Shown in pieces: positions 20,822 to 40,042 of a DNA stretch of 64,000 nt. The notes under the pieces are model-generated. The model saw only the letters and a list, made by a program, of their open reading frames with translations, was not told where the DNA came from and searched no databases. The translations under genes and the position numbers were made by a program. The DNA is taken from assembly GCA_037200925.1 (NCBI GenBank), contig JBBCGO010000001.1, forward strand, positions 317,248-381,247. The letters are read 5' to 3'. Each line of letters begins with the position of its first letter. Position 1 is the stretch's first letter. The DNA comes from Candidatus Doudnabacteria bacterium. Its GTDB lineage: Bacteria > Patescibacteriota > Doudnabacteria > UBA920 > O2-02-FULL-48-8.

Positions 20822-21586
20822 TCATTGCAAGGTAAGGATCTCGCATCCGTTATCGGTTATCATAACCGTATGTTCAAAGTGGGATGATCGGCCATGATCA
20901 GAAGTTTTAATGGTCCAGTTGTCTTGTGCAAAGTAAACCTTCCAGCCAAATTCATTGACCATGGGTTCTACCGCGATCACCATGCCTTTGATAAGTTTAG
21001 TTCCTGTGCCGTGTTTGCCAAAACACGGAACTTCCGGCTCTTCATGCACGGCTTTTCCCACTCCGTGCCCCACCAGCTCCCTGACAACCTGGAATCCGTA
21101 GTCTTTTGCTATCGATTCAATCGCAAACCCGACATCACCTGTATAATTATCCGGTTTCACCTGCATAAGTCCGGCTTTCAAAGCTTCTTGAGCTGCTGCG
21201 ATCAATTTCAGGTACTTTCCAGAAACTTTACCCACAGGTACGGTGATTGCGGCGTCCGTGAACAACCCTTGATATTGCACTCCGAGATCCAGGCCGACGA
21301 TATCGCCGTCCTGCATAATTTTATCTTTGCCAGGAATGCCGTGCACGACCTCATCATTGACGGAAACGCAGAGGCTGGCAGGAAAAGGCGTATCGCCCGG
21401 CTGCGGGCGGTAATTTTTGAACGACGGAATCCCTCCGAGCTTCCTGATCTCCGATTCTGCCAGCTGGTCCAGGTCAAAAGCCGAGACTCCCGGTTTCACT
21501 TGCTTTGCGACCAGATCCAAAACAGCGGCCAAGATCTTGCCTCCTTGGCGCAGAATTTCAAGCTCTTTTGGATCTTGAGTAATCAT
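20822..21586 (-). CDS. map: methionine aminopeptidase type I
   Basis: VHGIPGKDKIMQDGDIVGLDLGVQYQGLFTDAA and HEEPEV metal ligands. Confidence 0.85.
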   Translation of the reverse strand: MITQDPKELEILRQGGKILAAVLDLVAKQVKPGVSAFDLDQLAESEIRKLGGIPSFKNYRPQPGDTPFPASLCVSVNDEVVHGIPGKDKIMQDGDIVGLDLGVQYQGLFTDAAITVPVGKVSGKYLKLIAAAQEALKAGLMQVKPDNYTGDVGFAIESIAKDYGFQVVRELVGHGVGKAVHEEPEVPCFGKHGTGTKLIKGMVIAVEPMVNEFGWKVYFAQDNWTIKTSDHGRSSHFEHTVMITDNGCEILTLQ

Positions 21587-22142
21587 CTATTGCCTTTTTA
21601 ACATCCAGGGCAACTTTCACGATAGTTTGGTTGCCATTGATGAATTTAACTTTATGGAATTTCTGGAAATATCGGATCGTTTCCATAACCTGTTTTTTAT
21701 GGTAACTGATCCGGGATCGGATGTACTGCATGTCTAAATCCTTTTTTTCTCTATCTCTGTGAAAAGAACGTTTTTTTACCAATGCATCAGGCAGGCGGAG
21801 GTAGATCGCAAAAAAATCGCGGTGCTTGCGGTCCAGAATTTTTTTTAACAACACAGCCTCGCTTTTCAGTCTTGGTGTGCCGACAAACAACAAGTTTTTA
21901 CTTCTCGGGGCTCGTTCGACTGATCTTTTGATATATTCGTCAATAATTTTTGAAGGCACGGGAAGACCCCTGTCATAAGTCTGCAAAAAAATTTTTTTAT
22001 ATCTCGGATTTTCCCTCAATTTTCGCAGATACTCGCCGGATTTTACAAGCTTGAACTCATAATAACTTGCCAATAAATCAGCTTGGGTGTCTTTACCGGA
22101 AACCGGGGAACCGAGAATTATAAGATCAAAGCCGAGTTTCAT
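21558..22142 (-). CDS. divergent adenylate-kinase-family (NMP kinase) paralog
   Basis: LIILGSPVSGKDTQ P-loop variant. Adjacent to canonical adk. Confidence 0.5.
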   Translation of the reverse strand: MKLGFDLIILGSPVSGKDTQADLLASYYEFKLVKSGEYLRKLRENPRYKKIFLQTYDRGLPVPSKIIDEYIKRSVERAPRSKNLLFVGTPRLKSEAVLLKKILDRKHRDFFAIYLRLPDALVKKRSFHRDREKKDLDMQYIRSRISYHKKQVMETIRYFQKFHKVKFINGNQTIVKVALDVKKAIDDYSRSKRA

Positions 22143-22773: not shown

Positions 22774-23022
22774 TTAAGCCTGGTCTAGATGCTGCATCCA
22801 CTTCAAGTATTTCGTCCTCTTGTCCTCGTTGGTCGTGTAGAGCTGATGGCTTTCGATGATCTCTCTGGCCAGCAAAGGATCACCTTCATCTAACGCGCCC
22901 GCGGCAAGGTCATAAGGCTCGGCATAACGCACGTTGTTCACATGACCGTTCCGCATTTGCTGAGCCAGGTCCCGCAACCATCGTGAAATTTTTGGCCGAA
23001 CTTGCTCTGATCCCATTGACAC
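22774..23022 (-). CDS. hypothetical protein (82 aa) inserted between secY and adk
   Basis: GTG start preceded by TAGGAGGA; no recognisable domain. Confidence 0.45.
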   Translation of the reverse strand: MSMGSEQVRPKISRWLRDLAQQMRNGHVNNVRYAEPYDLAAGALDEGDPLLAREIIESHQLYTTNEDKRTKYLKWMQHLDQA

Positions 23023-24339: not shown

Positions 24340-24810
24340 CTATTGACCGGCCTTCTCGGTTTCAGTTTTAAGAATGACCTTCCCGCCCGCCTTTTCAATT
24401 TTTTCGCGGGCAGCGGCCGAAACCGCGATCTTTTCGAAATTAAGCGCTTTCTTGATCTCGCCGGAGGACAAAACTTTTACCCTGGAACTGCCTGATTTGA
24501 TGAGGCCCAGATTATATAAAATTTTGGGATTAACCGTATCCCCGGCTTTGAACTTATCACTCAGATCATCCAGGTTGAGTATTGTGGCTTTCGTGTTTCT
24601 GCTGGTAAAGCCGCGCCGCTTCGGCAGCTGGCGCTGCAGCGGCATTCGTCCGCCCTCAAATCCGATAGGAATTGAAGAGCCGGCGCGGGCTTTCTGGCCC
24701 TTGGCGCCGCGGCCGGAAAAAGTGCCATGGCCAGACCCAACGCCTCTCCCTACGACTTTACGGCGTTTAGTGGATCCTTTATGCGGTTTTAAGCTGTGTA
24801 AATTAAGCAT
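24340..24810 (-). CDS. rplO: 50S ribosomal protein L15
   Basis: GSGHGTFSGRGAKGQKAR. Follows rpsE directly, with no L30 gene between them. Confidence 0.9.
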   Translation of the reverse strand: MLNLHSLKPHKGSTKRRKVVGRGVGSGHGTFSGRGAKGQKARAGSSIPIGFEGGRMPLQRQLPKRRGFTSRNTKATILNLDDLSDKFKAGDTVNPKILYNLGLIKSGSSRVKVLSSGEIKKALNFEKIAVSAAAREKIEKAGGKVILKTETEKAGQ

Positions 24811-24811
24811 A

Positions 24812-25306
24812 TTACTTCCTTAGTTCCGCCATTTCTTCCTTGGAACGCAATTTGGACAAAGCCAAATAAGTGGCCATGGCGTTATTGACCTTGTTTGAAG
24901 ACCCGAGCATTTTCGACAGGACATTCTTAACACCAACAAGGTCCAACACCTGGCGGATAGCTCCGCCGGCGATGACTCCGGTGCCGGGCTGGGCCGGCTT
25001 TAGGAATACAACGGATGATTTATATTTAAACTTGATCTCATGCGGAATGGTATCGTTGACGATCTTGATCGGGATCATGGTTTTTTTGGCAGCCGCCACT
25101 GACTTGTTCACGGCTTCGGACACGTCAGCTCCTTTCCGCAGGCCCACACCCACGCGCCCTTTCTTATCTCCGATGACGACCAGCGCCCGAAAACGCATGC
25201 GCTTACCGCCTGCCACCACGCGCGTGACGCGCTTGATCTCCACGATCTTTTGTTCAAAATCGCGCTTGCCTGCATCCTGATTTCTGCCTCTTGATTGTCT
25301 GCGCAT
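24812..25306 (-). CDS. rpsE: 30S ribosomal protein S5
   Basis: RVTRVVAGGKRMRFRALVVIGD. Confidence 0.9.
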   Translation of the reverse strand: MRRQSRGRNQDAGKRDFEQKIVEIKRVTRVVAGGKRMRFRALVVIGDKKGRVGVGLRKGADVSEAVNKSVAAAKKTMIPIKIVNDTIPHEIKFKYKSSVVFLKPAQPGTGVIAGGAIRQVLDLVGVKNVLSKMLGSSNKVNNAMATYLALSKLRSKEEMAELRK

Positions 25307-29699: not shown

Positions 29700-30281
29700 T
29701 TATTCTCCGCTCTTTCTGTTAAATAACCGGCGCTTCAAAGACACTATATTCTGCTTGAGCTTTTCAGAAGGCCTCGGAGCCTGTTTGGCCTTGGTCTTTA
29801 TAGCCTGTACTTCACCGGCTTTAGGCTGTTCTATCTGGCCTGTGTGCGGCTCTTTTACTTCCGGCGCTGCGGCCCTTGGCCTCAAAGAGAAAATTGACCG
29901 GGTTTGCTTGGATTTGGCCCGCTCGCGGGATTCCAAAACAACATTGATATGGCTGGTGCGCTTGCGCTCCACAAATGCCCGGCCCTGGGCTCTGGGTGCA
30001 TAGCGTTTGAATACCGGGCCTTGGTCTATGGTCACGGCTTTTACGAATAAATTTTCTTTTTTCAGGTCAAAATTATGCACGGCATTGGCCACAGCTGAAT
30101 TGATGGCTTTGGTCAGGGGCAAAGCGGCATTCTTGGAAGAAAACCGGAGCTGTTCTAAGGCCACATCCACAGGAGTCCTTCGGATAAGGTCCGCCACAAG
30201 TCGAAGCTTGCGCGGAGACACATGGATGTATCTGGCGAATGCTTTGACCTCTTTAACTTTTGATAAATCTTGTTTAGCCAT
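29700..30281 (-). CDS. rplV: 50S ribosomal protein L22 with long basic C-terminal extension
   Basis: L22 core plus an approximately 80-aa lysine/alanine/proline-rich tail. Confidence 0.85.
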   Translation of the reverse strand: MAKQDLSKVKEVKAFARYIHVSPRKLRLVADLIRRTPVDVALEQLRFSSKNAALPLTKAINSAVANAVHNFDLKKENLFVKAVTIDQGPVFKRYAPRAQGRAFVERKRTSHINVVLESRERAKSKQTRSIFSLRPRAAAPEVKEPHTGQIEQPKAGEVQAIKTKAKQAPRPSEKLKQNIVSLKRRLFNRKSGE

Positions 30282-30308
30282 AATTATTTCTTAGGAGCAG
30301 CAGCTGGT

Positions 30309-30632
30309 TCAGCTTTTGCAGCTTCCAATGACCGTTTTTTCCGCTTCCTGGGCCGCAATCGCCTCTTCTTTGGCCATGCGTCCGCCGTGTCTGACGAATT
30401 TGCGGCTTGGTGAAAACTCGCCTAATTTGTGCCCGACCATGTTTTCCGAACAATGCACGGTTATAAAATTCTTGCCGTTGTGAACAAGGAAAGTCAGGCC
30501 TACCATTTCGGGAAAAATAGTGGAGTCGCGCGACCAGGTCTTGATCTCAACTTTCTGCCCAGGCCGAACCTTCTGGATCTTCTCCAGAAGTTTAGGATCT
30601 ATAAATGGTCCTTTTTTCAGTGATCGTGACAT
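30309..30632 (-). CDS. rpsS: 30S ribosomal protein S19
   Basis: [12 protein letters not shown]...[18 protein letters not shown]. Confidence 0.9.
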
Positions 30633-30635
30633 ATA

Positions 30636-31091
30636 TTAATTAGTAGATTTATTTGGATCAGGACCGCAAATGATATGTCCCGGGATACTCTGGGTTGTTC
30701 CGATCGGCACTTGTCCGGCAGGACATGGCCCGGGTGACGGGATCGGCGCTGGCGCTTCCGCACCAACTGGTGTTTGATCAGCAAGAGTAATTGTGGAAAC
30801 AGCAATGGTTCCTTCTCCTTGCTGACAAGTGCTCATTTCTTGCAAAGTACCTTTAATATCCACCGCATCACCTGTTTTGAATCCGGCAAGATTGCCTGTC
30901 AAAGTGTATTGTTTGCCGTCATCGGTTTGGAACAATTGGCATTCAGCGCCACCTGCTATTAACTTCCCGCTGAAAGAAGTTCCATTGCCTGGCTGATTTC
31001 CAGGCCCAACAGGTGCCTGTTTGTTGCAAGCTGCGGCTATTAAAATAATAGCCGGGATCAGGATAATTAATTTTTTCAGCGATCGTGACAT
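30636..31091 (-). CDS. lipoprotein inserted in the S10 operon; N-terminus MSRSLKK duplicated from rpsS
   Basis: MSRSLKKLIILIPAIILIAAAC (lipobox LIAAAC). Gene flanked by 24-bp direct repeats 30612-30635 and 31071-31094. Confidence 0.65.
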   Translation of the reverse strand: MSRSLKKLIILIPAIILIAAACNKQAPVGPGNQPGNGTSFSGKLIAGGAECQLFQTDDGKQYTLTGNLAGFKTGDAVDIKGTLQEMSTCQQGEGTIAVSTITLADQTPVGAEAPAPIPSPGPCPAGQVPIGTTQSIPGHIICGPDPNKSTN

Positions 31092-31109
31092 GTAATGCTT
31101 AATTTGGAT

Positions 31110-31697
31110 TTAATTGTTCTTGTCAGGAGGACATGGCTTGCCCATGTTCGGATCACAAGGATTTAGGCCATTAAGGTTGTTCTGATTTGCTTGAGATTGA
31201 GTAAATTTGAAAGTGGAAATTATCTGTTTGAATTCAGCGATCTTATCATTATTTTTCCCGTCAAAAGTTATAAACCTTACTTCTATGGCAGCGCCGGTGC
31301 TGGACTGGAAAGTAACCTCATATGAGATCCCTCCTGTTGGAGAGGCTGTCACTACCGGGGATTCATAAGCCGTAATTCCATTTACTTTGGTCTTATTTGG
31401 TATGTTTGCGAAATTCTTGTTCAAAAGGAAATCCATCGTGGAATAAGCTGAAGAAAAAGCCGGAGCCTGGGTACTGCCAAACATGCTGACCACATTCTTT
31501 GAAACGCTGTAATTGGAAGGGTACATTATCTGAAATCCATATTGAGCGTTCGTATACGTCTGCCAATCAGCCATTGAAACCGTTGAAGGAGCCGGTTGTT
31601 GTGTTTGCTGATTTTGGGCAGGTTGAACAGCCGCTTGTTGGTTGCAGGCCGCGGCCACTAATATTATTGAAGCTGTAACTGCCAGGATCTTTTTCAT
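31110..31697 (-). CDS. lipoprotein, YTN-motif family
   Basis: MKKILAVTASIILVAAAC lipobox, then DWQTYTNAQYGFQIMYPSNY. Confidence 0.65.
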   Translation of the reverse strand: MKKILAVTASIILVAAACNQQAAVQPAQNQQTQQPAPSTVSMADWQTYTNAQYGFQIMYPSNYSVSKNVVSMFGSTQAPAFSSAYSTMDFLLNKNFANIPNKTKVNGITAYESPVVTASPTGGISYEVTFQSSTGAAIEVRFITFDGKNNDKIAEFKQIISTFKFTQSQANQNNLNGLNPCDPNMGKPCPPDKNN

Positions 31698-31698
31698 A

Positions 31699-32340
31699 TT
31701 ATTTTTGTTTAATTTCTAATGTTTTAATTATATTGGTCATATCAATAAGCGCGGTGTTCAAACTTGCGCTGCCCTTCACGGGCAAACTGTTCACGTCCTT
31801 TGAATTATAAGCCATTGTCACTACCAAACCGGGAGGCTGATCATCTGTGTAATAATTGAAGTAGCCATTTCTGCTGTCCGTCAGATAAGAAAAATACCAA
31901 ACAGTAGAACCATTGGTCGGAACATTACAGTAATCTTTTTTGTCAGCAGCGGCAACATACAGATCCGCTCGGGAATAGTCATCAAATGCCGGATTTTTTT
32001 CTGAAGTCCCGCAGGGAGGGCTTGGCTGTTCGGTCACAACAGCATCAGCGCTTGGCGCCCCCATGGCAATTTCCGCAAAACGACCTCCCTCAACACCGCT
32101 GGCTTGTGAAGCCTGAGTGTTAACATAAAGAATATAGTTTCCCTTGGTAATATTGACCGCTGCGGAATTTGAACCGGCCTGAGCGGCTGTCCATCCGGCA
32201 GGGATCGTGATTTTCATGAATTGATTTTCGTAAACCTGGCTCTGTGGCGGCGGAGGTGGAGTAGGCTGAACAGCCGCTTGTTTGTTGCAAGCCGCGGCAA
32301 GTAGCAAAATTCCGATTGTAGCTACAAAAATCTTTTTCAT
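31699..32340 (-). CDS. lipoprotein, hypothetical
   Basis: MKKIFVATIGILLLAAACNKQAAVQP lipobox. The leader is near-identical to those of neighbours 31110-31697 and 36021-36587. Confidence 0.6.
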   Translation of the reverse strand: MKKIFVATIGILLLAAACNKQAAVQPTPPPPPQSQVYENQFMKITIPAGWTAAQAGSNSAAVNITKGNYILYVNTQASQASGVEGGRFAEIAMGAPSADAVVTEQPSPPCGTSEKNPAFDDYSRADLYVAAADKKDYCNVPTNGSTVWYFSYLTDSRNGYFNYYTDDQPPGLVVTMAYNSKDVNSLPVKGSASLNTALIDMTNIIKTLEIKQK

Positions 32341-32344
32341 AAAA

Positions 32345-33175
32345 TTATTTTTCCCGTCTCTTAACTATAAACTTATTAGATTTCTTTTTATCTCGTGTCT
32401 TTACGCCCAAAGCGTGTTTGCCCCACGGGGTTTTCGGGTATTTCAAACCGATAGGATTATGCCCTTCGCCCCCGCCGTGCGGGTGGTCTATCGGGTTCAT
32501 GGCCTTGCCGCGGACCGAAGGCCGGACTCCCATGTGGCGGACTCTCCCTGCCTTGCCGATCCGCACATACATCCAGTCAGTGTTGGAAACCTGTCCGATC
32601 GTGGCGTACGATTTGACCGGTACTTTGCGAAGCTCGCTGGAAGGCAGTTTCAGAGTCGTGTAATCCGGCTCCTGGGCAGCGACGATTGCATATGTTCCGG
32701 CAGATCTGGCGAGCAAGCCTCCCTGCCCGCCCAAAATTTCCACATTATGGACATTAGTGCCGAGGGGGATGTGTTTGAGCATCATGCGGTTTCCCGGCTT
32801 GATCTCCGCGCGTTCGGAAGTCACCAGAACTTCGCCCATCTTTACTCCGTCAGGTGCGAGAATGTACCGTCTTTCGCCGTCGCGGTAAGCCAAAAGGGAA
32901 ATGAACGCCGAACGGCCCGGATCGTATTCCAAAGTTTTGACGATTGCCGGAATATCCATCTTGTCGCGCTTAAAATCTATCAGGCGGTTTATCTGCTTAT
33001 GCCCGCCGCCCTGGTGGCGGATAGTGATCTTACCCTGGTTGTTGCGACCCGCGGTGCGGGCGGCTGATCGCATCAAAGATTTCACGGGTTTGGAATTTTT
33101 GGTCAAAACCGAATAATCCGTCACGGAATGGATGCGGCGGCCGGGTGAAGTTGGTTTGTAAATCTTGATAGCCAT
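32345..33175 (-). CDS. rplB: 50S ribosomal protein L2
   Basis: Canonical L2 (GRNNQGKITIRHQGGGHK...). Confidence 0.9.
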   Translation of the reverse strand: MAIKIYKPTSPGRRIHSVTDYSVLTKNSKPVKSLMRSAARTAGRNNQGKITIRHQGGGHKQINRLIDFKRDKMDIPAIVKTLEYDPGRSAFISLLAYRDGERRYILAPDGVKMGEVLVTSERAEIKPGNRMMLKHIPLGTNVHNVEILGGQGGLLARSAGTYAIVAAQEPDYTTLKLPSSELRKVPVKSYATIGQVSNTDWMYVRIGKAGRVRHMGVRPSVRGKAMNPIDHPHGGGEGHNPIGLKYPKTPWGKHALGVKTRDKKKSNKFIVKRREK

Positions 33176-33176
33176 A

Positions 33177-33599
33177 TTATACTCCTTCGGATAATCCTGC
33201 TATCCGTTCTCCGCTCTTTAAAGTAACTATTGCTTTCTTCCAATCCTGGGTTCTTCCCACTGACTTGCCTTGGCGGCGGTTCTTGCCGGAAACATTTATC
33301 ATATTGACCGCAGAGACATGCACGTCATATACAGCCTCAACCGCTTTTTTGACCTCTATCTTATTGGCGGTCTTGGCTACTTTGAAAACATATCGGCCGA
33401 TGGAGGAAAACTGGTTGGTTTTTTCCGACAAATGATAACGATGCAGAATATGATGCGCACGACCCGTGTTTTCTTTCAAAACAGTCGGCGTTGAATCGGT
33501 CTTTCCTGCAACAGGTTCTTTGACCAAATCCAAAACATTGTCCTCTTTCGGGGCTTTCTTGCTGCCTTGTTTGCTTTTAAATCTGTCTAAGAGCGCCAT
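33177..33599 (-). CDS. rplW: 50S ribosomal protein L23 (with N-terminal extension)
   Basis: L23 core in the canonical position. Confidence 0.8.
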   Translation of the reverse strand: MALLDRFKSKQGSKKAPKEDNVLDLVKEPVAGKTDSTPTVLKENTGRAHHILHRYHLSEKTNQFSSIGRYVFKVAKTANKIEVKKAVEAVYDVHVSAVNMINVSGKNRRQGKSVGRTQDWKKAIVTLKSGERIAGLSEGV

Positions 33600-33603
33600 A
33601 TCA

Positions 33604-34245
33604 TTAAACTTTTAAATACGTTTTCTCAATAATTGGCAACGCATCTTTCAAAACCAATACATCATGCTTCAAAAGATCCAAAACATTCAGCCGATCGGCG
33701 TATAGGACTTTCACATTTTCCAGATTTCGCGCAGCCCGTTCCAGGTCTTTATTATGCGTGGCCAGAACCAGCAAATATTTCTTGCCGAACTCGGCTTTGC
33801 CGGCAACAACCGCCAGTTTTGCCGCCAGTTCTTTCGATTTGGCGGTATTATCAAAACTTTCCACGATAACTAACTTATGCTCATTGACCTTGTCGGTCAA
33901 AACGCTGAACATTGCTTTTCTTTGGGCTGACTTGTTCATTTTCAAGGACCAATTGCGGGCGCTGGTCGGGCCAAAAGTGACTCCGCCGTGCCGCCAAATA
34001 GGCGAACGGACCGAGCCGGCTCTGGCGCGTCCGGTGCCTTTTTGCTTCCACGGCTTTTTGCCGGAACCGGCTACCTCGCCGCGGTTTTTCGTATGGGCGA
34101 TCGACCGGCGGGCGTTATTTCTCTGCGTTCGCACAGCCGAGTGGACCAGATTACCGTCAATTTTTTCAATGCCAAAGATCTTCGGATTCAGGTCCAGTTC
34201 CGTTACTTTTTCGCCTGTTTGGTTGTAGACTGATGTTTTTGCCAT
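33604..34245 (-). CDS. rplD: 50S ribosomal protein L4
   Basis: Canonical L4. Confidence 0.85.
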   Translation of the reverse strand: MAKTSVYNQTGEKVTELDLNPKIFGIEKIDGNLVHSAVRTQRNNARRSIAHTKNRGEVAGSGKKPWKQKGTGRARAGSVRSPIWRHGGVTFGPTSARNWSLKMNKSAQRKAMFSVLTDKVNEHKLVIVESFDNTAKSKELAAKLAVVAGKAEFGKKYLLVLATHNKDLERAARNLENVKVLYADRLNVLDLLKHDVLVLKDALPIIEKTYLKV

Positions 34246-34246
34246 A

Positions 34247-34840
34247 TTAGTTCCTAATCAAATTAGGGCAATCAGTAAACACACCGTCTATCTGAAATTC
34301 TTTAAGCTTTTCAAATCTTTCCCGGTCATTTACTGTCCAGATGAAGATCTTTTTATTCAGCTTTTTCAGATACTCGATCGTGATCCTGTTGCAAAAAAAC
34401 GATTTTGGATGAATGGAATAAAGCTGCAGAGTGCGGTCCAGCTTCGGAATGAGCGGAAGAAGAAAAAAATTCTCTCCCAGTATCAGCCCGAGTTTGATAT
34501 TTTCATCCAAACTTCTGATCTTCTTCAGTATCGACGGATACTTGGAGGAAACCAGAACTTCAGAGGAAAAATTCTTAAGCAATTCTACGAGCTGGGTTTC
34601 AAAACCCGTCTCTTTAACTTCCAGGTTCAGCGCAACCTTCGCGACCCGAAGCAGTTCTTCCAAGGTTGCCGGCTGGTTGTGTTTGTTCAAAAAATTATGG
34701 CACAGAACGATCTGGCCGTCGGAATTGAGGCGCAAGTCGGTTTCAAGCATGTCCACTCCCAGCTCCTGCGCTTTTTGAAAAGAACGGATAGTATTCTCAG
34801 GTTCCAGGCTTGGCGCTCCTCTGTGTCCTATTATTAGCAT
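34247..34840 (-). CDS. glycerophosphodiester phosphodiesterase (GDPD family), inserted between rplC and rplD
   Basis: MLIIGHRGAPSLEPENTIRSFQKAQELGVDMLETDLRLNSDGQIVLCHN - the GDPD catalytic motifs HRG...ENT...E.D. Confidence 0.75.
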   Translation of the reverse strand: MLIIGHRGAPSLEPENTIRSFQKAQELGVDMLETDLRLNSDGQIVLCHNFLNKHNQPATLEELLRVAKVALNLEVKETGFETQLVELLKNFSSEVLVSSKYPSILKKIRSLDENIKLGLILGENFFLLPLIPKLDRTLQLYSIHPKSFFCNRITIEYLKKLNKKIFIWTVNDRERFEKLKEFQIDGVFTDCPNLIRN

Positions 34841-34898
34841 AAATATTGAATTTTGATTTTAGTTTTTAACCTGTCGCGCATGATCGTCAACGTTGTTA

Positions 34899-35504
34899 CT
34901 AACTCTGCGTCTGGATCCTGACTATACCGCCGTTTGCGCCCGGAACCGCTCCTTTCACTGCTATCAGATTTCTCTTGAGGTCCACATCCACGACTTCCAG
35001 ATTGATGACTGTCCGCACGCCGCCCATGCGTCCGGCCATATGCAAACCTTTTCTGACATGCTGGGGAAACCTGCCGCCGATGGCGCCCACGGCTCTCGGA
35101 TGGTCATGGCCGTGGGAAGCCGGCGCGCCTTTGAACCTGTAACGCTTGATCGGTCCTGCAAATCCCCGGCCTTTCATTTCTGCCGTAACTTTCACCTTGT
35201 CGCCGACGGCAAACGCGTCAACTTTTATCTCCTGGCCTTTTTCAAAACTGTCTTTTTCGGAAATTCTGAATTCCGCCAAAGTTTTAAATGCGCCCGCCTC
35301 TTTGCCGTGCCCTAGTTCTGCTTTGTTTGCGTTCTTCTTCTTGCCAAACCCAACCTGCACGGCCTGGTATTTGTCTTTATCCAAGGTTTTGACCTGCACG
35401 ACTTTGACCGGTCCTGCCAAAAGAATGGTTACGGGCACGACCTTGCCGTCTTTCGTGAACATCTGCGACATATTCAGTTTTTCAGCGAGAATGAATTTGG
35501 ACAT
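34899..35504 (-). CDS. rplC: 50S ribosomal protein L3
   Basis: Canonical L3. Confidence 0.9.
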   Translation of the reverse strand: MSKFILAEKLNMSQMFTKDGKVVPVTILLAGPVKVVQVKTLDKDKYQAVQVGFGKKKNANKAELGHGKEAGAFKTLAEFRISEKDSFEKGQEIKVDAFAVGDKVKVTAEMKGRGFAGPIKRYRFKGAPASHGHDHPRAVGAIGGRFPQHVRKGLHMAGRMGGVRTVINLEVVDVDLKRNLIAVKGAVPGANGGIVRIQTQS

Positions 35505-35510
35505 AAATTT

Positions 35511-35563
35511 GGCTTAAAGAAAAACCATTCAGATCCCAGAAAGCTTCAGAAACCTGAATGGTT
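35511..35563 (-). terminator. terminator/attenuator-like hairpin plus U-run between rpsJ and rplC
   Basis: Minus strand: AACCATTCAG-(21 nt)-CTGAATGGTT followed by TTTTCTTT, immediately upstream of the rplC start. Confidence 0.4.
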
Positions 35564-35618
35564 CTTCTTCGTTGGCGATTTCCGGGAGGATCTATCCAAC
35601 ATACACTATTATAATTTT

Positions 35619-35945
35619 TTACATTTTGATCTCTATATCCACTCCTGCCGGCAAATTCAGATTACTTAATGCATCAATTGTTTTCGGCGTAGGAGAAGCA
35701 ATATCTATCAGGCGCTTATGAATGCGCATCTCAAACTGCTCGCGGGCATTCTTATGCACGAAGGTCGAGCGGTTCACGGTATACTTTGTCTTTTCAGTCG
35801 GAAGCGGAACAGGCCCGATGACCGCAGCGCCTGTTCGCTTGGCAGTTTCTACGATCTGCTTCGCGGACTGGTCTATCAGCTTATGGTCATAAGCCCGGAT
35901 CTTGATCCTTATTCTGCCTTTATTCTCGTCAGTATCTTGCGCCAT
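35619..35945 (-). CDS. rpsJ: 30S ribosomal protein S10
   Basis: Canonical S10. Confidence 0.9.
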
Positions 35946-36020
35946 CTGGTTTGTAAATATTACTTAACGCTCTTGTTAAAATACACATTTTCGAAGGGTT
36001 TGTCAACACCGGAAGGGATG

Positions 36021-36587
36021 TTATTTGGTAAATTTAACACTGGCCAGAATATAGTTTAATATTTGATCGTTCGTGGAATTTTTAAATCTGTTATCATAAG
36101 AAATCGCCAAGTAATTGTTAGCTGAAAAAGGAATCGAGATAAGTTGTTCCTTCGCGTCCGAAATACTGGTCGCTTGCTTGCCGCCGACGGTCAATTGCGT
36201 AGGGTTCCCTAATTTGCTTAAATTTCCCGTACCATTACCAACACTAAGCGAAAATATACAAACCGCCGAGGCCAAATTCTGCGGGTCAAAACAAGATTTT
36301 GATTCACTGACCAGCTTTAATCCCGAAACAAAAAGTGGGGATGGCTGCATAATTTCCATTTGTAAGCTTGTCGGATACTTGAACTCAAATCCATATTGCG
36401 CATTGGTATAAGTTTTCCAACCTGCTGTCGGGTCAGTTGTGGGGGCAGGGGCTGGTGCAGGAGTTTGAGTTACCGGCTGCGGGGCGGGAGCGGGCTGAAC
36501 AGCCGCCTGATTGTTGCAAGCCGCGGCGAGGAGCAAAACTGCTGATGTAATTACTAGAATCTTCTTCATAACTTCCAACCTAACCAA
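36021..36587 (-). CDS. lipoprotein, YTN-motif family, inserted between tuf and rpsJ
   Basis: Likely start MKKILVITSAVLLLAAAC at 36569, then GWKTYTNAQYGFEFKYPTSL. Confidence 0.65.
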   Translation of the reverse strand: MVRLEVMKKILVITSAVLLLAAACNNQAAVQPAPAPQPVTQTPAPAPAPTTDPTAGWKTYTNAQYGFEFKYPTSLQMEIMQPSPLFVSGLKLVSESKSCFDPQNLASAVCIFSLSVGNGTGNLSKLGNPTQLTVGGKQATSISDAKEQLISIPFSANNYLAISYDNRFKNSTNDQILNYILASVKFTK

Positions 36588-36627
36588 AGGACTACTTGGG
36601 GTTTCCTCAAGTAGTCCTTTATTTTTT
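36587..36627. terminator. 12-bp perfect hairpin downstream of tuf (bidirectional terminator-like)
   Basis: AAGGACTACTTG-gggtttcct-CAAGTAGTCCTT flanked by A/T runs. Confidence 0.45.
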
Positions 36628-37813
36628 ACTTTGTGATCTTGAGCACTACGCCGGCTCCTACGGTGTGTCCGCCTTCGCGGATGGCGAAACGCATCTTCTC
36701 TTCCATGGCCACGGGTGTGATCAATTTAATTTTTAAGGTAACGGTGTCGCCCGGCATGACCATTTCCTGCCCTGCTGGCAGTTCAACTTCTCCGGTCACG
36801 TCAGTGGTTCGGATATAAAATTGGGGTTTGTAGCCTTTGAAGAAAGGAGTATGACGGCCGCCTTCTTCCTTGGTCAGAATGTAGACTTCAGCGTCAAATT
36901 CAGTGTGAGGGGTCACAGAACCCGGCTTGGCCAAAACTTGTCCGCGTTCAACATCTTCTTTCTTGGTGCCGCGGAGCAAAACCCCGGCATTGTCGCCGGC
37001 CCGGCCTTCTTCCAATTGCTTGTTGAACATTTCAATACCGGTCACAACCGTCTTTGTGGTCGGGCGGATGCCGACGATCTCAATTTCTTCGCCGATCTTG
37101 ACTATGCCGCGTTCAATTCTTCCTGTGACCACAGTGCCGCGTCCTTCAATTGAAAAAATATCTTCTATCGGCATCAGATATGGCTTGTCGGTTTCTCGCA
37201 CCGGTTCAGGGATATAAGTGTCCAATGCTTCTACCAATTTCAGAATTGAAGGCTCGCCGATCTCTGACTGGTCGCCTTCCAACGCTTTGAGCGCGGAACC
37301 GCGGATGATAGGAGTATCTTTTCCCGGAAAGCCGTATTTGGTCAAAAGGTCGCGAATTTCTTCTTCCACCAGATCAAGCAATTCCTTGTCATCCACCATA
37401 TCCACTTTGTTCATATAAACCACGATGTAAGGAACGCCAACCTGCTTGGCAAGCAAAATATGTTCGCGGGTCTGAGGCATGGGACCGTCAGTTGCTGACA
37501 CGACCAAGATCGCGCCGTCCATCTGGGCTGCACCCGTGATCATATTCTTGATGTAATCTGCGTGTCCCGGACAGTCCACGTGCGCATAGTGGCGCTTGTC
37601 TGATTCGTATTCAACGTGCGTGGTGTTGATGGTTATACCGCGCGCCTTTTCTTCCGGTGATTTATCAATATCATCATACGCGCGGGCCTTAGCCTTGCCG
37701 GTTTTGGCCAGCACGTTGGTGATTGCCGCAGTCAATGTAGTCTTGCCATGGTCAACGTGGCCAATGGTGCCGATGTTGATATGCGGTTTGGAACGGTCAA
37801 ATTTCTCTGCCAT
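36626..37813 (-). CDS. tuf: elongation factor Tu
   Basis: [13 protein letters not shown]...DCPGHADY... Confidence 0.95.
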
Positions 37814-37987
37814 ACAAAATAGCCTTATTTTATTAAGGTTTAAGCGCTTATCATTCTGATCCTAAGCCAAGGATCTTTCGACCATGACACTTGGCCAAGT
37901 TCAGGATGAGGGCTCAAAACCTATATTTAATTATAGTCACTTGGAGATTATATAGGATTTGGAGGGCCTTAGCAAGTCCTCCAACCC

Positions 37988-38016
37988 TTGTGGATAAATA
38001 CCCTAAATGATATGCT
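37988..38016 (+). promoter_or_regulatory. candidate sigma70-like promoter for plus-strand islet 1
   Basis: TTGTGG-17 nt-TATGCT upstream of the SD AAGGAGGA and GTG 38040. Weak match. Confidence 0.25.
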
Positions 38017-38039
38017 AGGAAACCATAAGGAGGACGTTT

Positions 38040-38354
38040 GTGATTGATCCTACTGAGGAGACCATCCTGGCGATCACCGTATATTTGAAAAGACAACGCG
38101 CTATCTTTGAAACAATGAGCCAAGGCCTGGATGAAAATGCAAACCTATTCAAGGAAACCCTTGCCCAGATAGATGAGGCCATCGCCCATCTGCAGGCTGG
38201 CGCTTTTTCTCGGACAATCAGTCTATTAGAGGAACAACGTCACATTACCTCGAAGATAAATTTAAACACGATCGAAAAAGATGAGGTCAACAGAGTAGTG
38301 TTTAAACTGCTGGACGAATGGCTCAGAGTTCTTAAAAAACAGATCCAGTCATAA
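38040..38354 (+). CDS. hypothetical protein (104 aa), islet 1 gene 1
   Basis: GTG start 10 nt after AAGGAGGA; helical; no recognisable domain. Confidence 0.5.
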   Translation: MIDPTEETILAITVYLKRQRAIFETMSQGLDENANLFKETLAQIDEAIAHLQAGAFSRTISLLEEQRHITSKINLNTIEKDEVNRVVFKLLDEWLRVLKKQIQS

Positions 38355-38395
38355 GCTAAGTTTCTGGAATAATCGGGTCAAAAAGGAGGGCTTAA

Positions 38396-38788
38396 TTGCC
38401 CAAGAACATACGACCGCGGGTGAACCGGCTGGCCCGAAACAAGCAAGACGACAAACTTAGCTTTGTGATCAAAGAGGTCGAAGAATATGTGAGAGCCAGG
38501 ATCAAGTTGCATACAAAGGCAGCTCGGCGAAAAGGCGATAAGCTCTTGGCTCAAATTTTTCTGGTCCAAGACAAAAATGCCCTGAAATATTTGAACACGG
38601 GGCATCTGCCGAAAGTAGTTCAATTCCTGGCCGACGAACAGGAACTGTGCCGGGAGTTGGCCAAGAGCGCCCGCGAGGTAATGAAAGAGTTGCCGCGAGC
38701 CCAGCTCCTGGTACAAATCCGTGAGGCCCAGATCGAAGCTGAAATGGTCGGTCAGTGGATCAAGGTTCTTTCCAAACAACAGCGATGA
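38396..38788 (+). CDS. hypothetical protein (130 aa), islet 1 gene 2
   Basis: TTG start after AAAGGAGGG; basic helical protein. Confidence 0.5.
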   Translation: MPKNIRPRVNRLARNKQDDKLSFVIKEVEEYVRARIKLHTKAARRKGDKLLAQIFLVQDKNALKYLNTGHLPKVVQFLADEQELCRELAKSAREVMKELPRAQLLVQIREAQIEAEMVGQWIKVLSKQQR

Positions 38789-38890
38789 TCTGCCAAGATC
38801 AGCTGCCCCGCCCGCCCAAGCTAAATGCTGCTGCGGGTTCTTTTTTTATACAAAAAAATGATATACTGGAGGCCAAACAAGGAGGAGGAT

Positions 38891-39337
38891 GTGAAATACA
38901 TGATAGGACTCTTCCGAAGACTGCGTGCTTTGATGCCCGGCAGAAAAGACTGGTATCTAGGAACTTGGGGGCCTGATGTTTGCAAAGGTACGTGGAACTT
39001 TGACAACGGACGAGCCGTAATATTCGAACTTACTCCGCTCATATCCGTGGCTCGCTACCATACCCAAAGGGAAGCCGAGGATATAGCGTTGTATCTCAAT
39101 CAGGTAAATTTTTGCATTGTGCGGCCGGACAAAAGCATCTACGACGCGCCTGTGAGGATGCTGACCCTTTCGCCTGAAAACGACAGGTGGAACAAAATGG
39201 CTCTGGGCATCGCAGACAAGAAAACGCACGCTTGGCCGTTTGATTCCATCATAGGAGGACCGAATGAAGATCGAGCTCAACCTTTCGATAAGGGTGACGC
39301 AACAAATCCAAACGCTTCCTCTGATCAGGCGGTTTAG
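38891..39337 (+). CDS. hypothetical protein (about 148 aa), islet 1 gene 3
   Basis: Track ORF 38825-39337 trimmed to the GTG at 38891 (or ATG at 38900) preceded by AAGGAGGAGG. Overlaps the next gene by 74 nt. Confidence 0.45.
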   Translation: MKYMIGLFRRLRALMPGRKDWYLGTWGPDVCKGTWNFDNGRAVIFELTPLISVARYHTQREAEDIALYLNQVNFCIVRPDKSIYDAPVRMLTLSPENDRWNKMALGIADKKTHAWPFDSIIGGPNEDRAQPFDKGDATNPNASSDQAV

Positions 39338-39554
39338 GAAAAAGATCGAGATCGACCTGCCCGAGGGAGCCACGGTCGCGGATGTGAAGCTCGGACCAAA
39401 CAACGAGATCCGCGTCTCAATAAATGCCGATGGGATTGTCAACGAAGCCAGTTTCTGGAAGCTGGATCTTGATTGGCAACCGAACGGTCTGGCTTACACC
39501 AAGCAGATGGCACGGCCTATTGATCCGGAAGCCTGGCGCGCGGCCGTGGACTAA
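39264..39554 (+). CDS. hypothetical protein (96 aa), islet 1 gene 4
   Basis: ATG preceded by TAGGAGGA. Confidence 0.5.
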   Translation: MKIELNLSIRVTQQIQTLPLIRRFRKKIEIDLPEGATVADVKLGPNNEIRVSINADGIVNEASFWKLDLDWQPNGLAYTKQMARPIDPEAWRAAVD

Positions 39555-39572
39555 TGATTATCCGGAGGAGAC

Positions 39573-39791
39573 ATGAACAGACTGACCCGCTCAGAACGCT
39601 CAATCGGTCTGCGGCAGGCTCAACAGTCGAACCCGGAGCATTTCGCCGCCAAGTTCGAACTCGAACAGAACTATCGCAAAAAAGTCAGGAACGGTAAGCT
39701 GGTTCTGCTTGCGATCGTTGTTGTGGTTGTCTGGTGGCCTGATATCTTCAGATCAATAAGCCGGATCATGCACATGGTCGCTCGCAACTGA
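39573..39791 (+). CDS. hypothetical small membrane protein (72 aa), islet 1 gene 5
   Basis: SD GGAGGAG; one TM helix LVLLAIVVVVVWW. Confidence 0.45.
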   Translation: MNRLTRSERSIGLRQAQQSNPEHFAAKFELEQNYRKKVRNGKLVLLAIVVVVVWWPDIFRSISRIMHMVARN

Positions 39792-39817
39792 CGACCTGCC
39801 GCGAGGAGGAAAACTCC

Positions 39818-39955
39818 GTGTACTACCCGTCCCGATTCGACCGCTTCATCGTGCGCTTGGCCTACTGGGCCGGATGGCTCACTGATGTGGACAAAGAACT
39901 GGTGCAAGCCTTTCTGAACTCGCCCAGACACCCGCCCAAACTCACGCCAAAGTGA
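39818..39955 (+). CDS. hypothetical small protein (45 aa), islet 1 gene 6
   Basis: GTG 39818 preceded by GAGGAGGA at 8 nt; VYYPSRFDRFIVRLAYWAGWLTDVDKELVQAF... Confidence 0.3.
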   Translation: MYYPSRFDRFIVRLAYWAGWLTDVDKELVQAFLNSPRHPPKLTPK

Positions 39956-40002
39956 ATTTGGGTCTTTTTTTTGCTCATGACTTTGCTGCTGAGCATTATC
40001 TG

Positions 40003-40036
40003 GAACAAAAAACCGCCTTTCGGCGGTTTTAAAATT
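40003..40036. terminator. bidirectional intrinsic terminator shared by islet 1 (+) and fusA (-)
   Basis: AAAAAACCGCC-tttc-GGCGGTTTTAAAATTTT. Confidence 0.65.
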
Positions 40037-40042
40037 TTAAGT

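Follow-up and report, generated by a model that had tools for sequence, protein, structure and literature searches.

Genes for a GDPD-family phosphodiesterase and for lipoproteins inside the S10 ribosomal-protein operon of Candidatus Doudnabacteria

The S10 operon is a textbook case of frozen gene order and serves as a common phylogenetic and binning marker block. We analysed a stretch of 64,000 nucleotides (the window) from a genome of Candidatus Doudnabacteria, a lineage of very small and as yet uncultured soil bacteria in the Candidate Phyla Radiation (CPR, Patescibacteria), in which this operon carries genes of other kinds. A gene for a phosphodiesterase of the glycerophosphodiester phosphodiesterase (GDPD) family is located between rplC and rplD, and three lipoprotein genes, LP1, LP2 and LP3, occupy the space between rplB and rpsS. 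A fourth lipoprotein gene, LPA, lies between tuf and rpsJ. On balance we consider it likely that the S10 operon of Doudnabacteria acquired lineage-specific passengers at two intra-operon junctions and that LPA is a separate insertion. The inserts have three different histories: that of an ancient GDPD gene, that of a dynamic lipoprotein slot and that of an inter-operon LPA. An earlier inspection of the sequence alone (the original prediction) had described them as one phenomenon. All of them are indeed co-directional passengers, but the GDPD gene is ancient whereas the content of the lipoprotein slot was gained, expanded and lost between close relatives.

The region is a ribosomal super-operon with all genes on the minus strand (coordinates in Table 1). 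Its 5' part reads rpsL-rpsG-fusA, followed after a gap of 2.2 kb by tuf-LPA-rpsJ-rplC-GDPD-rplD-rplW-rplB-LP1-LP2-LP3-rpsS-rplV-rpsC, and its 3' part continues to rplO-secY-(orphan open reading frame, ORF)-adk-adk2-map. Pfam confirmed L2, L23, S19, L22, GDPD and DUF5818 among the window proteins. With 1712 nt between rplB and rpsS, the three lipoprotein genes that had been predicted in 1.7 kb at this position are present, and Pfam (PF03009) together with the gene map bears out the GDPD gene between rplC and rplD, which lie 652 nt apart. When rplB was used as the query, the nearest relatives were metagenome-assembled genomes (MAGs) of Candidatus Doudnabacteria, and the window comes from such a genome.

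For comparison, 80 rplB-centred loci were annotated by BLAST against the window proteins. The 52 rplB-retrieved loci outside the clade have rplB-rpsS gaps of at most 246 nt and rplC-rplD gaps of at most 117 nt; given these limits, insertions inside the S10 operon are rare outside Doudnabacteria. Thirteen Doudnabacteria species representatives have an insert of 550–760 nt between rplC and rplD, which is missing from all 67 other loci. Alignment with related S10 loci, which had been proposed as a way to date each insertion, showed the GDPD gene to be old and clade-wide, and LP3 and LPA to be probably recent. Our literature search returned no report of genes inserted within S10, in CPR bacteria or elsewhere, and nothing combining Candidate Phyla Radiation, lipoprotein and GDPD. 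The closest work describes the str|S10 junction as an insertion site, and the rearrangements analysed there in detail are insertions between operons, except for nrdHEF inside the rpoBC operon (Brandis 2021, PMC8046335). Passengers in ribosomal operons are already known; for inserts internal to S10 we found no earlier description in the searchable literature.

The GDPD gene starts 58 nt past the rplC stop codon and leaves 1 nt between its end and the rplD ATG, with a partial Shine-Dalgarno (SD) sequence of rplD (AGGA) located within its 3' end. The protein scores 85 bits against PF03009 (cut-off 23.6) and matches 25 GDPD chains of known structure, most closely 2pz0 (E=2e-21). Compared to 2pz0, its insertion lobe (between residues 50 and 77) is shorter by about 40 residues. 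Among 69 clade members, conservation is 95% or higher at the catalytic and metal-binding positions H6, R7, E15, N16, E33, D35, H48 and K76, and all elements of the motif pattern HR...EN, ExD, second His and ExK are present. No signal peptide was found in the 197-aa sequence, a compact cytoplasmic protein. When searching with the GDPD protein, 72 clusters at ≥38% identity formed a distinct group, followed by a sharp drop in similarity; those clusters that carry a source name are all labelled Doudnabacteria or Patescibacteria, while most of the 72 carry none. Even the most distant GDPD tested (P0070, 38%) is still located between rplC and rplD and overlaps both, and likewise the one in locus L091. 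The next-best matches, at 30–34% identity, lie in unrelated gene neighbourhoods. The GC content at third codon positions (GC3) of the gene is 0.525, equal to the genome mean.

In a neighbour-joining species tree of 7 ribosomal proteins, the GDPD-bearing genomes all fall into one crown clade. The gene is absent in L007+L008 and in L016, which we read as probable losses. Position, conservation, catalytic residues, tight junctions and GC3 taken together indicate one old insertion that appears to be fully domesticated into the operon and to be under purifying selection throughout the clade. A single insertion close to the base of the crown Doudnabacteria clade would have been followed by vertical inheritance under this selection. 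The gene has neither its own promoter nor its own terminator, and its transcription most likely starts at the S10 promoter. Translation of rplD probably depends on that of the GDPD gene by coupling, and a glycerophosphodiester-recycling activity would be tied to ribosome synthesis.

The lipoprotein genes are recognized by their leaders. In the window these read ...LLLAAACNKQAAVQP, ...ILVAAACNQQAAVQP, ...ILIAAACNKQAPVGP and ...LLLAAACNNQAAVQP, and all four proteins start with MKK or MSRSLKK, followed by 11–12 hydrophobic residues and then an A-A-A-C lipobox. At position -3 of the lipobox these predicted lipoproteins have Ala, not Leu, Val or Ile, and the match of LPA to Pfam LPAM_1 is weak (E=0.0097). 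Near-identical leaders had been noticed before, and the DNA agrees: a 35-nt leader core occurs in 3 copies with at most 3 mismatches, compared to 0 expected from shuffles. The suggestion to look for the same leader elsewhere was followed up as well. Within the 64 kb such a leader is confined to these four ORFs, and the window has no extra copies of the leader core. No other gene has it in the wider flanks of 28 related loci, and in a metagenome scan of 241 million records the pattern AAACN[KQ]QAAVQP was matched 3 times, always in the rplB|rpsS slot. Every slot gene seen encodes MKK, a hydrophobic stretch and AAAC-N-K/Q-Q, with the window LP3 beginning with MSRSLKK.

Behind the leader the slot proteins differ. 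Their mature parts are 106 to 338 residues long, and most have no more in common than a short WxTYTNxxYGF motif, if that. The mature domain of LP1 is 55–67% identical to more than 200 protein clusters, proteins of Acidobacteria included, and an alignment of 45 sequences has 29 invariant columns; both observations indicate purifying selection. Orthologues of LP1 are found in the same slot of L009 and L091 (66–67% identity). Its AlphaFold model (predicted local distance difference test score, pLDDT, of 83.5) gave CyanoP and PsbP as top Foldseek matches, with TM-scores of 0.36–0.42 and E=9e-4, and among the matches were two type VI secretion immunity proteins of PsbP-like fold. On Pfam PsbP_2 (PF18933), LP2 and LPA reach about 20 bits, which is below the cut-off of 27. 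LP2 belongs to a large fast-evolving 'WxTYTNxxYGFxFxYP...STFKFT' family with 1376 representatives at E <= 1e-3 and itself alone at E <= 1e-30. LP3 scores 35.1 bits on DUF5818 (PF19135; cut-off 27), and an orthologue of 69% identity lies beside rpsS in L092. NCBIfam gave no names for LP1, LP3 or LPA. LP1, LP2 and LPA look like envelope-anchored binding modules.

Many clusters with the LP1 domain are 216-aa proteins labelled Terriglobales or Angelobacter which carry their own signal peptide. One of these is located in a non-CPR context of 54% GC (L089, 5001-5651). The mature domain of the window LP1 is about 57–60% identical to the Terriglobales/Angelobacter clade. Sequences of the Acidobacteria type group closely in a single clade (mean identity 81%), which is nested in more diverse CPR-type forms (~61%). 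This distribution suggests gene exchange between CPR bacteria and Acidobacteria, and the nesting weakly favours a CPR origin of LP1. We also considered whether LP1 had recently been replaced by horizontal transfer between the window and L009, but found no support for this: LP1 identity is 66% and thus below the 75% of rplB, which fits vertical descent.

Across Doudnabacteria the slot holds between 0 and 3 lipoprotein genes. Seven further species representatives have exactly one slot gene each, alike in the leader but not in the mature domain, and other occupied slots were found in L084/L095, L091, L092/L093 (two genes) and L094 (two genes). Altogether the slot is occupied in at least 11 distinct genomes, by lipoprotein genes only, and it is empty in most species of the crown clade. 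In the closest relative, L002 (85% rplB identity), the rplB-rpsS slot is reduced to 64 nt. This scar reads ATGAAAAAGATTTTTGTCGCTACAATTGGAATTTTGTTGGTTGATAAGAATCTTAACTAA and translates into MKKIFVATIGILLVDKNLN followed by a stop; it consists of the first 13 codons of LP1 and an LP2-like tail (DKNLN and stop), after which rpsS follows. The common ancestor therefore had LP1 and LP2, and L002 deleted ~1.2 kb of the slot. Between the LP2-like tail and rpsS of L002 there is no LP3 remnant, which makes a later gain of LP3 in the lineage of the window most likely.

The start of LP3 points to how this may have happened. In the window it reads ATGTCACGATCGCTGAAAAAA, which equals the first seven codons of rpsS (MSRSLKK) with one mismatch. 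The LP3 orthologue in L092 has the usual MKK type of start, ATGAAAAAG, and the same TAA-TAT-ATG junction to rpsS as the window. Comparison of the two starts places the junction at AAAAAA, which is common to both. This fits either an rpsS-anchored insertion that was joined at the microhomology or a conversion in which 12 nt were taken from rpsS. In another relative, an LP1-type and an LP2-type domain are fused without a second leader in an ENA metagenome protein of 303 aa (P0117); the two genes are therefore subject to fusion or fission. Duplications, fusions, deletions and insertions would all alter the content of the slot. In the lineage of the window, LP3 would have been joined to an ancestral LP1 and LP2 at the AAAAAA microhomology, with rpsS codons 1-7 being copied. 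As anchors for recombination, the conserved leader and the invariant flanking genes rplB and rpsS are probable candidates. All leader copies are direct, with no inverted copies in the 29-38 kb region. No tandem repeats were detected in 30000-37000 by Tandem Repeats Finder (TRF), and no inverted repeats linking the leaders, as for invertible elements, were found.

LPA differs from the other inserts in its position. In relatives a strong hairpin with a T-run directly follows tuf, and the window has an equivalent terminator-like hairpin. Upstream of rpsJ, a TTGAC-N17-(GTG)TAnnnT pair is present in 13 of 17 listed relatives (not in L001, L007, L014 and L017). LPA is placed between the tuf hairpin and this S10 promoter and therefore lies at the str|S10 boundary and not inside S10. 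Thus the original prediction was right about a lipoprotein gene between tuf and rpsJ but not about its being inside the S10 operon, since it is upstream of the conserved S10 promoter. LPA is absent from every related locus with a recovered tuf-rpsJ spacer; in L002 this spacer measures 142 nt. There is no space for a promoter specific to LPA. It would be a separate recent insertion, presumably expressed by read-through from tuf. Other cargo was seen in the same spacer elsewhere, namely a glycosyltransferase family 2 (GT2)-like protein in L023 and L025 and a conserved 111-114 aa protein in L018-L022. With different genes in the spacer of other clades, the tuf|rpsJ junction is a hot spot for insertions across the phylum in general.

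Downstream of the S10 promoter, the 114-nt spacer between rpsJ and rplC folds into a two-hairpin RNA with a minimum free energy of -39 kcal/mol. Compensatory changes were found in 13 of 32 pairs among ten species. A covariance model gave exactly one sense-strand match per crown-clade locus, including loci outside the seed, whereas deeper Doudnabacteria and other phyla gave none. When 20-45 kb of the window was compared to Rfam at E <= 1, a chance miRNA match was returned and no known ribosomal leader. We regard this RNA as a candidate attenuator or ribosomal-protein leader, which probably attenuates everything downstream, passengers included.

To judge whether the inserts truly belong to the operon, several explanations have to be weighed. 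That the ribosomal operon is a chimera, into which the assembly placed GDPD and lipoprotein genes of other origin, has next to no chance of being correct; all that speaks for it is that such insertions are a priori rare and that the source is a MAG. The same arrangement, either full or as an identical LP2-LP3-rpsS segment, is present in GCA_037975565.1 (contig of 964 kb), Logan SRR28211699 (contig of 13.8 kb), GCA_015689235.1 and Logan SRR10968259, and LP1 and LP3 of identical sequence with identical neighbours recur across several assemblies. Mis-assembly, which had been named beforehand as grounds for discarding the arrangement, was thus looked at, and the arrangement stands, since four independent assemblies from different runs have the same junctions. 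In addition, homologous arrangements are known in more than 15 other species and in-frame footprints are found at the junctions. With respect to transcription, the spacers rplB|LP1, LP1|LP2, LP2|LP3 and LP3|rpsS measure 4, 1, 18 and 3 nt, no GGAGG is located upstream of LP1, LP2, LP3, rpsS or GDPD, and no convincing minus-strand terminator (hairpin and U-tract) was found within the inserts. GDPD and LP1-3 thus have the features of the S10 unit (same strand, short spacers, no internal signals), which LPA has not. Because these genes are co-directional, have spacers of 1-58 nt and contain no convincing internal terminator or strong promoter, it is most economical to assume that they are co-transcribed with S10. 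This is our best reading from the gene layout, and their translation would be coupled. The original prediction had assumed co-transcription at ribosomal-protein levels; the layout agrees with the co-transcription, but codon usage gives no evidence for the level.

Several points weigh against our interpretation. Promoter-like 9/12 matches are located upstream of LP1 (32371-32344) and LP2 (31727-31698), and internal initiation is therefore possible. The lipoprotein genes have a GC3 of 0.37-0.43, compared to 0.53-0.64 for ribosomal genes and a genome mean of 0.53 +/- 0.07, and a codon adaptation index (CAI) of 0.57-0.63, compared to 0.66-0.77 for ribosomal genes, and they lack an SD sequence. Such values do not point to selection for very high expression, and the proposal that surface proteins are expressed here at a very high level found no support. 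Neither of the two closest relatives, L002 and L003, has a gene in the slot, and its content is therefore dispensable. The GDPD protein remains far under the NCBIfam equivalog cut-offs (PRK09454, 61 bits vs 264) and is therefore assigned to the family level only, not to UgpQ, with its substrate uncertain. The neighbour-joining tree carries no support values. Finally, synonymous identity at leader codons 15-26 (0.72, compared to 0.49 in an invariant stretch of rplB and 0.60 in rpsS, 10 species) suggests constraint at the DNA level or recombination, with the excess resting on 12 codons and non-independent species pairs. Some of these points would suit a split operon, in which the inserts bring their own weak promoters or terminators, the downstream genes form separate units and the passengers are independent of ribosomal-protein levels. 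The matches upstream of LP1 and LP2 are directly adjacent and on the coding strand, the region contains 26 promoter-like sites vs 16.2 +/- 3.9 in shuffles, the lipoprotein genes are AT-richer than their flanks and a 58-nt AT-rich spacer precedes GDPD. We nevertheless regard a split as quite unlikely: there is no minus-strand hairpin with a U-tract within or after the inserts, 1 and 3 nt separate the inserts from the ribosomal genes that follow, GDPD overlaps both ribosomal neighbours in relatives, and the LP1 and LP2 matches are weak and without a conserved counterpart, unlike the S10 promoter.

The lipoprotein genes could also be neutral hitchhikers at a harmless junction that are decaying and whose position is of no functional significance, with the leader reflecting ancestry and signal-peptide constraint. 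The many empty slots in the crown clade, the deletion scar in the closest relative, the fast divergence of the mature domains as in the LP2 family, and the poor codon adaptation are what would be expected in this case. All slot ORFs seen are intact with complete leaders, however, the LP1 identities and invariant columns point to purifying selection, occupancy recurs among distinct genomes with lipoprotein genes only, and the synonymous sites of the leader are more conserved than those of rplB or rpsS. Neutral hitchhiking therefore seems improbable to us. At the other end stands the idea that the rplB|rpsS slot is a dedicated expression site for surface lipoproteins. A DNA-constrained leader and the rplB and rpsS anchors would frame swappable cassettes, with which the surface of an episymbiont diversifies while transcription stays locked to the operon under a hitherto undescribed attenuator behind rpsJ. 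Mature-domain cassettes would be swapped, duplicated or deleted, and one family is about 60% identical to proteins of Acidobacteria, a possible host. We regard this idea as rather unlikely, and keep to the more general interpretation of lineage-specific passengers at two junctions within the operon.

Table 1. Position of genes and of predicted signals in the window (aa, amino acids)
Feature	Position	Strand	Remarks
tuf	36626-37813	minus	
tuf terminator-like hairpin	36586-36620	minus	15/16 positions pair, tail UUUGGUU; directly upstream of LPA
LPA, lipoprotein, 182 aa	36021-36569	minus	
putative S10 promoter, TTGACA-17-TATTTT, upstream GTG	35978-36006	minus	motif match
rpsJ (S10)	35619-35945	minus	Pfam annotation
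two-hairpin RNA, second hairpin terminator-like	35514-35604	minus	folding and covariation
rplC (L3)	34899-35504	minus	
GDPD-family phosphodiesterase, 197 aa	34247-34840	minus	Pfam PF03009, E=1e-23
rplD (L4)	33604-34245	minus	
rplW (L23)	33177-33599	minus	Pfam
rplB (L2), left flank of lipoprotein slot	32345-33175	minus	Pfam
LP1, lipoprotein, 213 aa	31699-32340	minus	
LP2, lipoprotein, 195 aa	31110-31697	minus	
LP3, lipoprotein, 151 aa	30636-31091	minus	Pfam DUF5818, E=1e-8
rpsS (S19), right flank of lipoprotein slot	30309-30632	minus	Pfam
orphan ORF, 82 codons, strong AGGAGG SD	22774-23022	minus	between secY and adk
adk2, diverged nucleoside-monophosphate kinase	21558-22142	minus	P-loop GSPVSGKDT

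Two extras in the spc block had been described in the original prediction and both were confirmed. The hypothetical gene with an SD sequence between secY and adk is the orphan ORF listed in Table 1; it has no Pfam or NCBIfam match and no homologue in any related locus. Among relatives the secY-adk spacer ranges from 65 to 1408 nt. The second adk paralog is a diverged adk-like gene, adk2, whose best NCBIfam match, below threshold, is the UMP-CMP kinase family, and the order adk1-adk2-map is kept across Doudnabacteria.

Some further observations were made along the locus. A homopolymer in rpsS (30335-30340, minus strand) has A x6 in the window and A x5 in the otherwise identical Logan contig L082. 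The extra A shifts the frame and shortens the S19 tail to 107 aa, compared to 115 aa in L082; this 1-nt difference is probably an assembly error or a strain polymorphism. L23 has an N-terminal extension of ~50 residues. L30 is typically lost in CPR bacteria; rpsE and rplO are directly adjacent (24810-24812) without an rpmD (L30) gene at the junction, which is consistent with this loss. The gap between fusA and tuf (37814-40042) contains five small plus-strand ORFs of ~72-170 aa without Pfam match, and a variable island of 0.7-4.2 kb is present between fusA and tuf in all related Doudnabacteria. No tRNA genes were found near tuf and just two elsewhere in the window. Doudnabacteria-like S10 contigs (L008, L013, L016 and others) also sit in MAGs labelled Methylomirabilota, Verrucomicrobiia, Acidobacteriaceae or Saccharibacteria, labels that probably result from mis-binning or mislabelling.

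These results indicate that even the S10 operon can host non-ribosomal genes. If our interpretation is correct, intra-operon junctions can be colonised, and a whole CPR clade tolerates such passengers and, in the case of GDPD, conserves them. An inserted gene could then become integrated to the point of overlapping both of its ribosomal neighbours. CPR bacteria are thought to scavenge lipids, and the nature of the passengers would point to growth-tied functions, namely recycling of phospholipid head groups and envelope lipoproteins. The rplB-rpsS slot would provide a compact, easily amplifiable marker of surface-protein turnover in uncultured Doudnabacteria populations, and the covarying RNA behind rpsJ a testable candidate for S10 autoregulation outside Gammaproteobacteria.

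Several known systems resemble parts of this locus. In E. coli the S10 leader acts by L4-mediated transcription attenuation. This leader is reported to be restricted to Gammaproteobacteria (PMC3616713). Like it, the RNA described here is structured, has a terminator hairpin near the 5' end of the S10 operon and could throttle the downstream genes; unlike it, this RNA is located after rpsJ and has no sequence or Rfam relationship to it.

Mycoplasma species possess variable surface lipoprotein families (vlp, vsp, vsa, vpma), of which the vsa/vpma type are phase-variable expression sites. As in these families, the 5' end encoding the leader is highly conserved even as DNA, the mature parts are divergent and there is one expression context. 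The slot differs from the vsa/vpma type in having no inverted leader copies (29-38 kb) and in that no recombinase or silent cassettes were identified, and from the families in general in varying between species, not within one genome, and in sitting in a ribosomal operon. The start of LP3 recalls homology-facilitated illegitimate recombination, which occurs in natural transformation: one junction lies in the anchor rpsS, the other at AAAAAA, and the result is an in-frame chimeric MSRSLKK-LP3. Here it is known as a footprint alone, and a 12-nt templated insertion or gene conversion gives the same sequence.

The best known passengers of ribosomal-protein operons are secY-adk-map-infA in spc and rpoA in alpha, non-ribosomal genes that are co-transcribed with the respective operon. 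Like these, the inserts described here are co-directional and tightly packed in a ribosomal-protein operon, and the window also has secY-adk-adk2-map. The spc and alpha passengers are ancient, near-universal and located in the distal spc and alpha blocks, whereas the inserts are confined to one CPR clade, lie inside S10 at rplC|rplD and rplB|rpsS, and carry a lipid-headgroup phosphodiesterase and envelope lipoproteins as cargo. LPA resembles the insertions at the site described by Brandis 2021 (PMC8046335), being placed exactly at the str|S10 inter-operon junction; in contrast to those between-operon cases, GDPD and LP1-3 are located within the operon itself.

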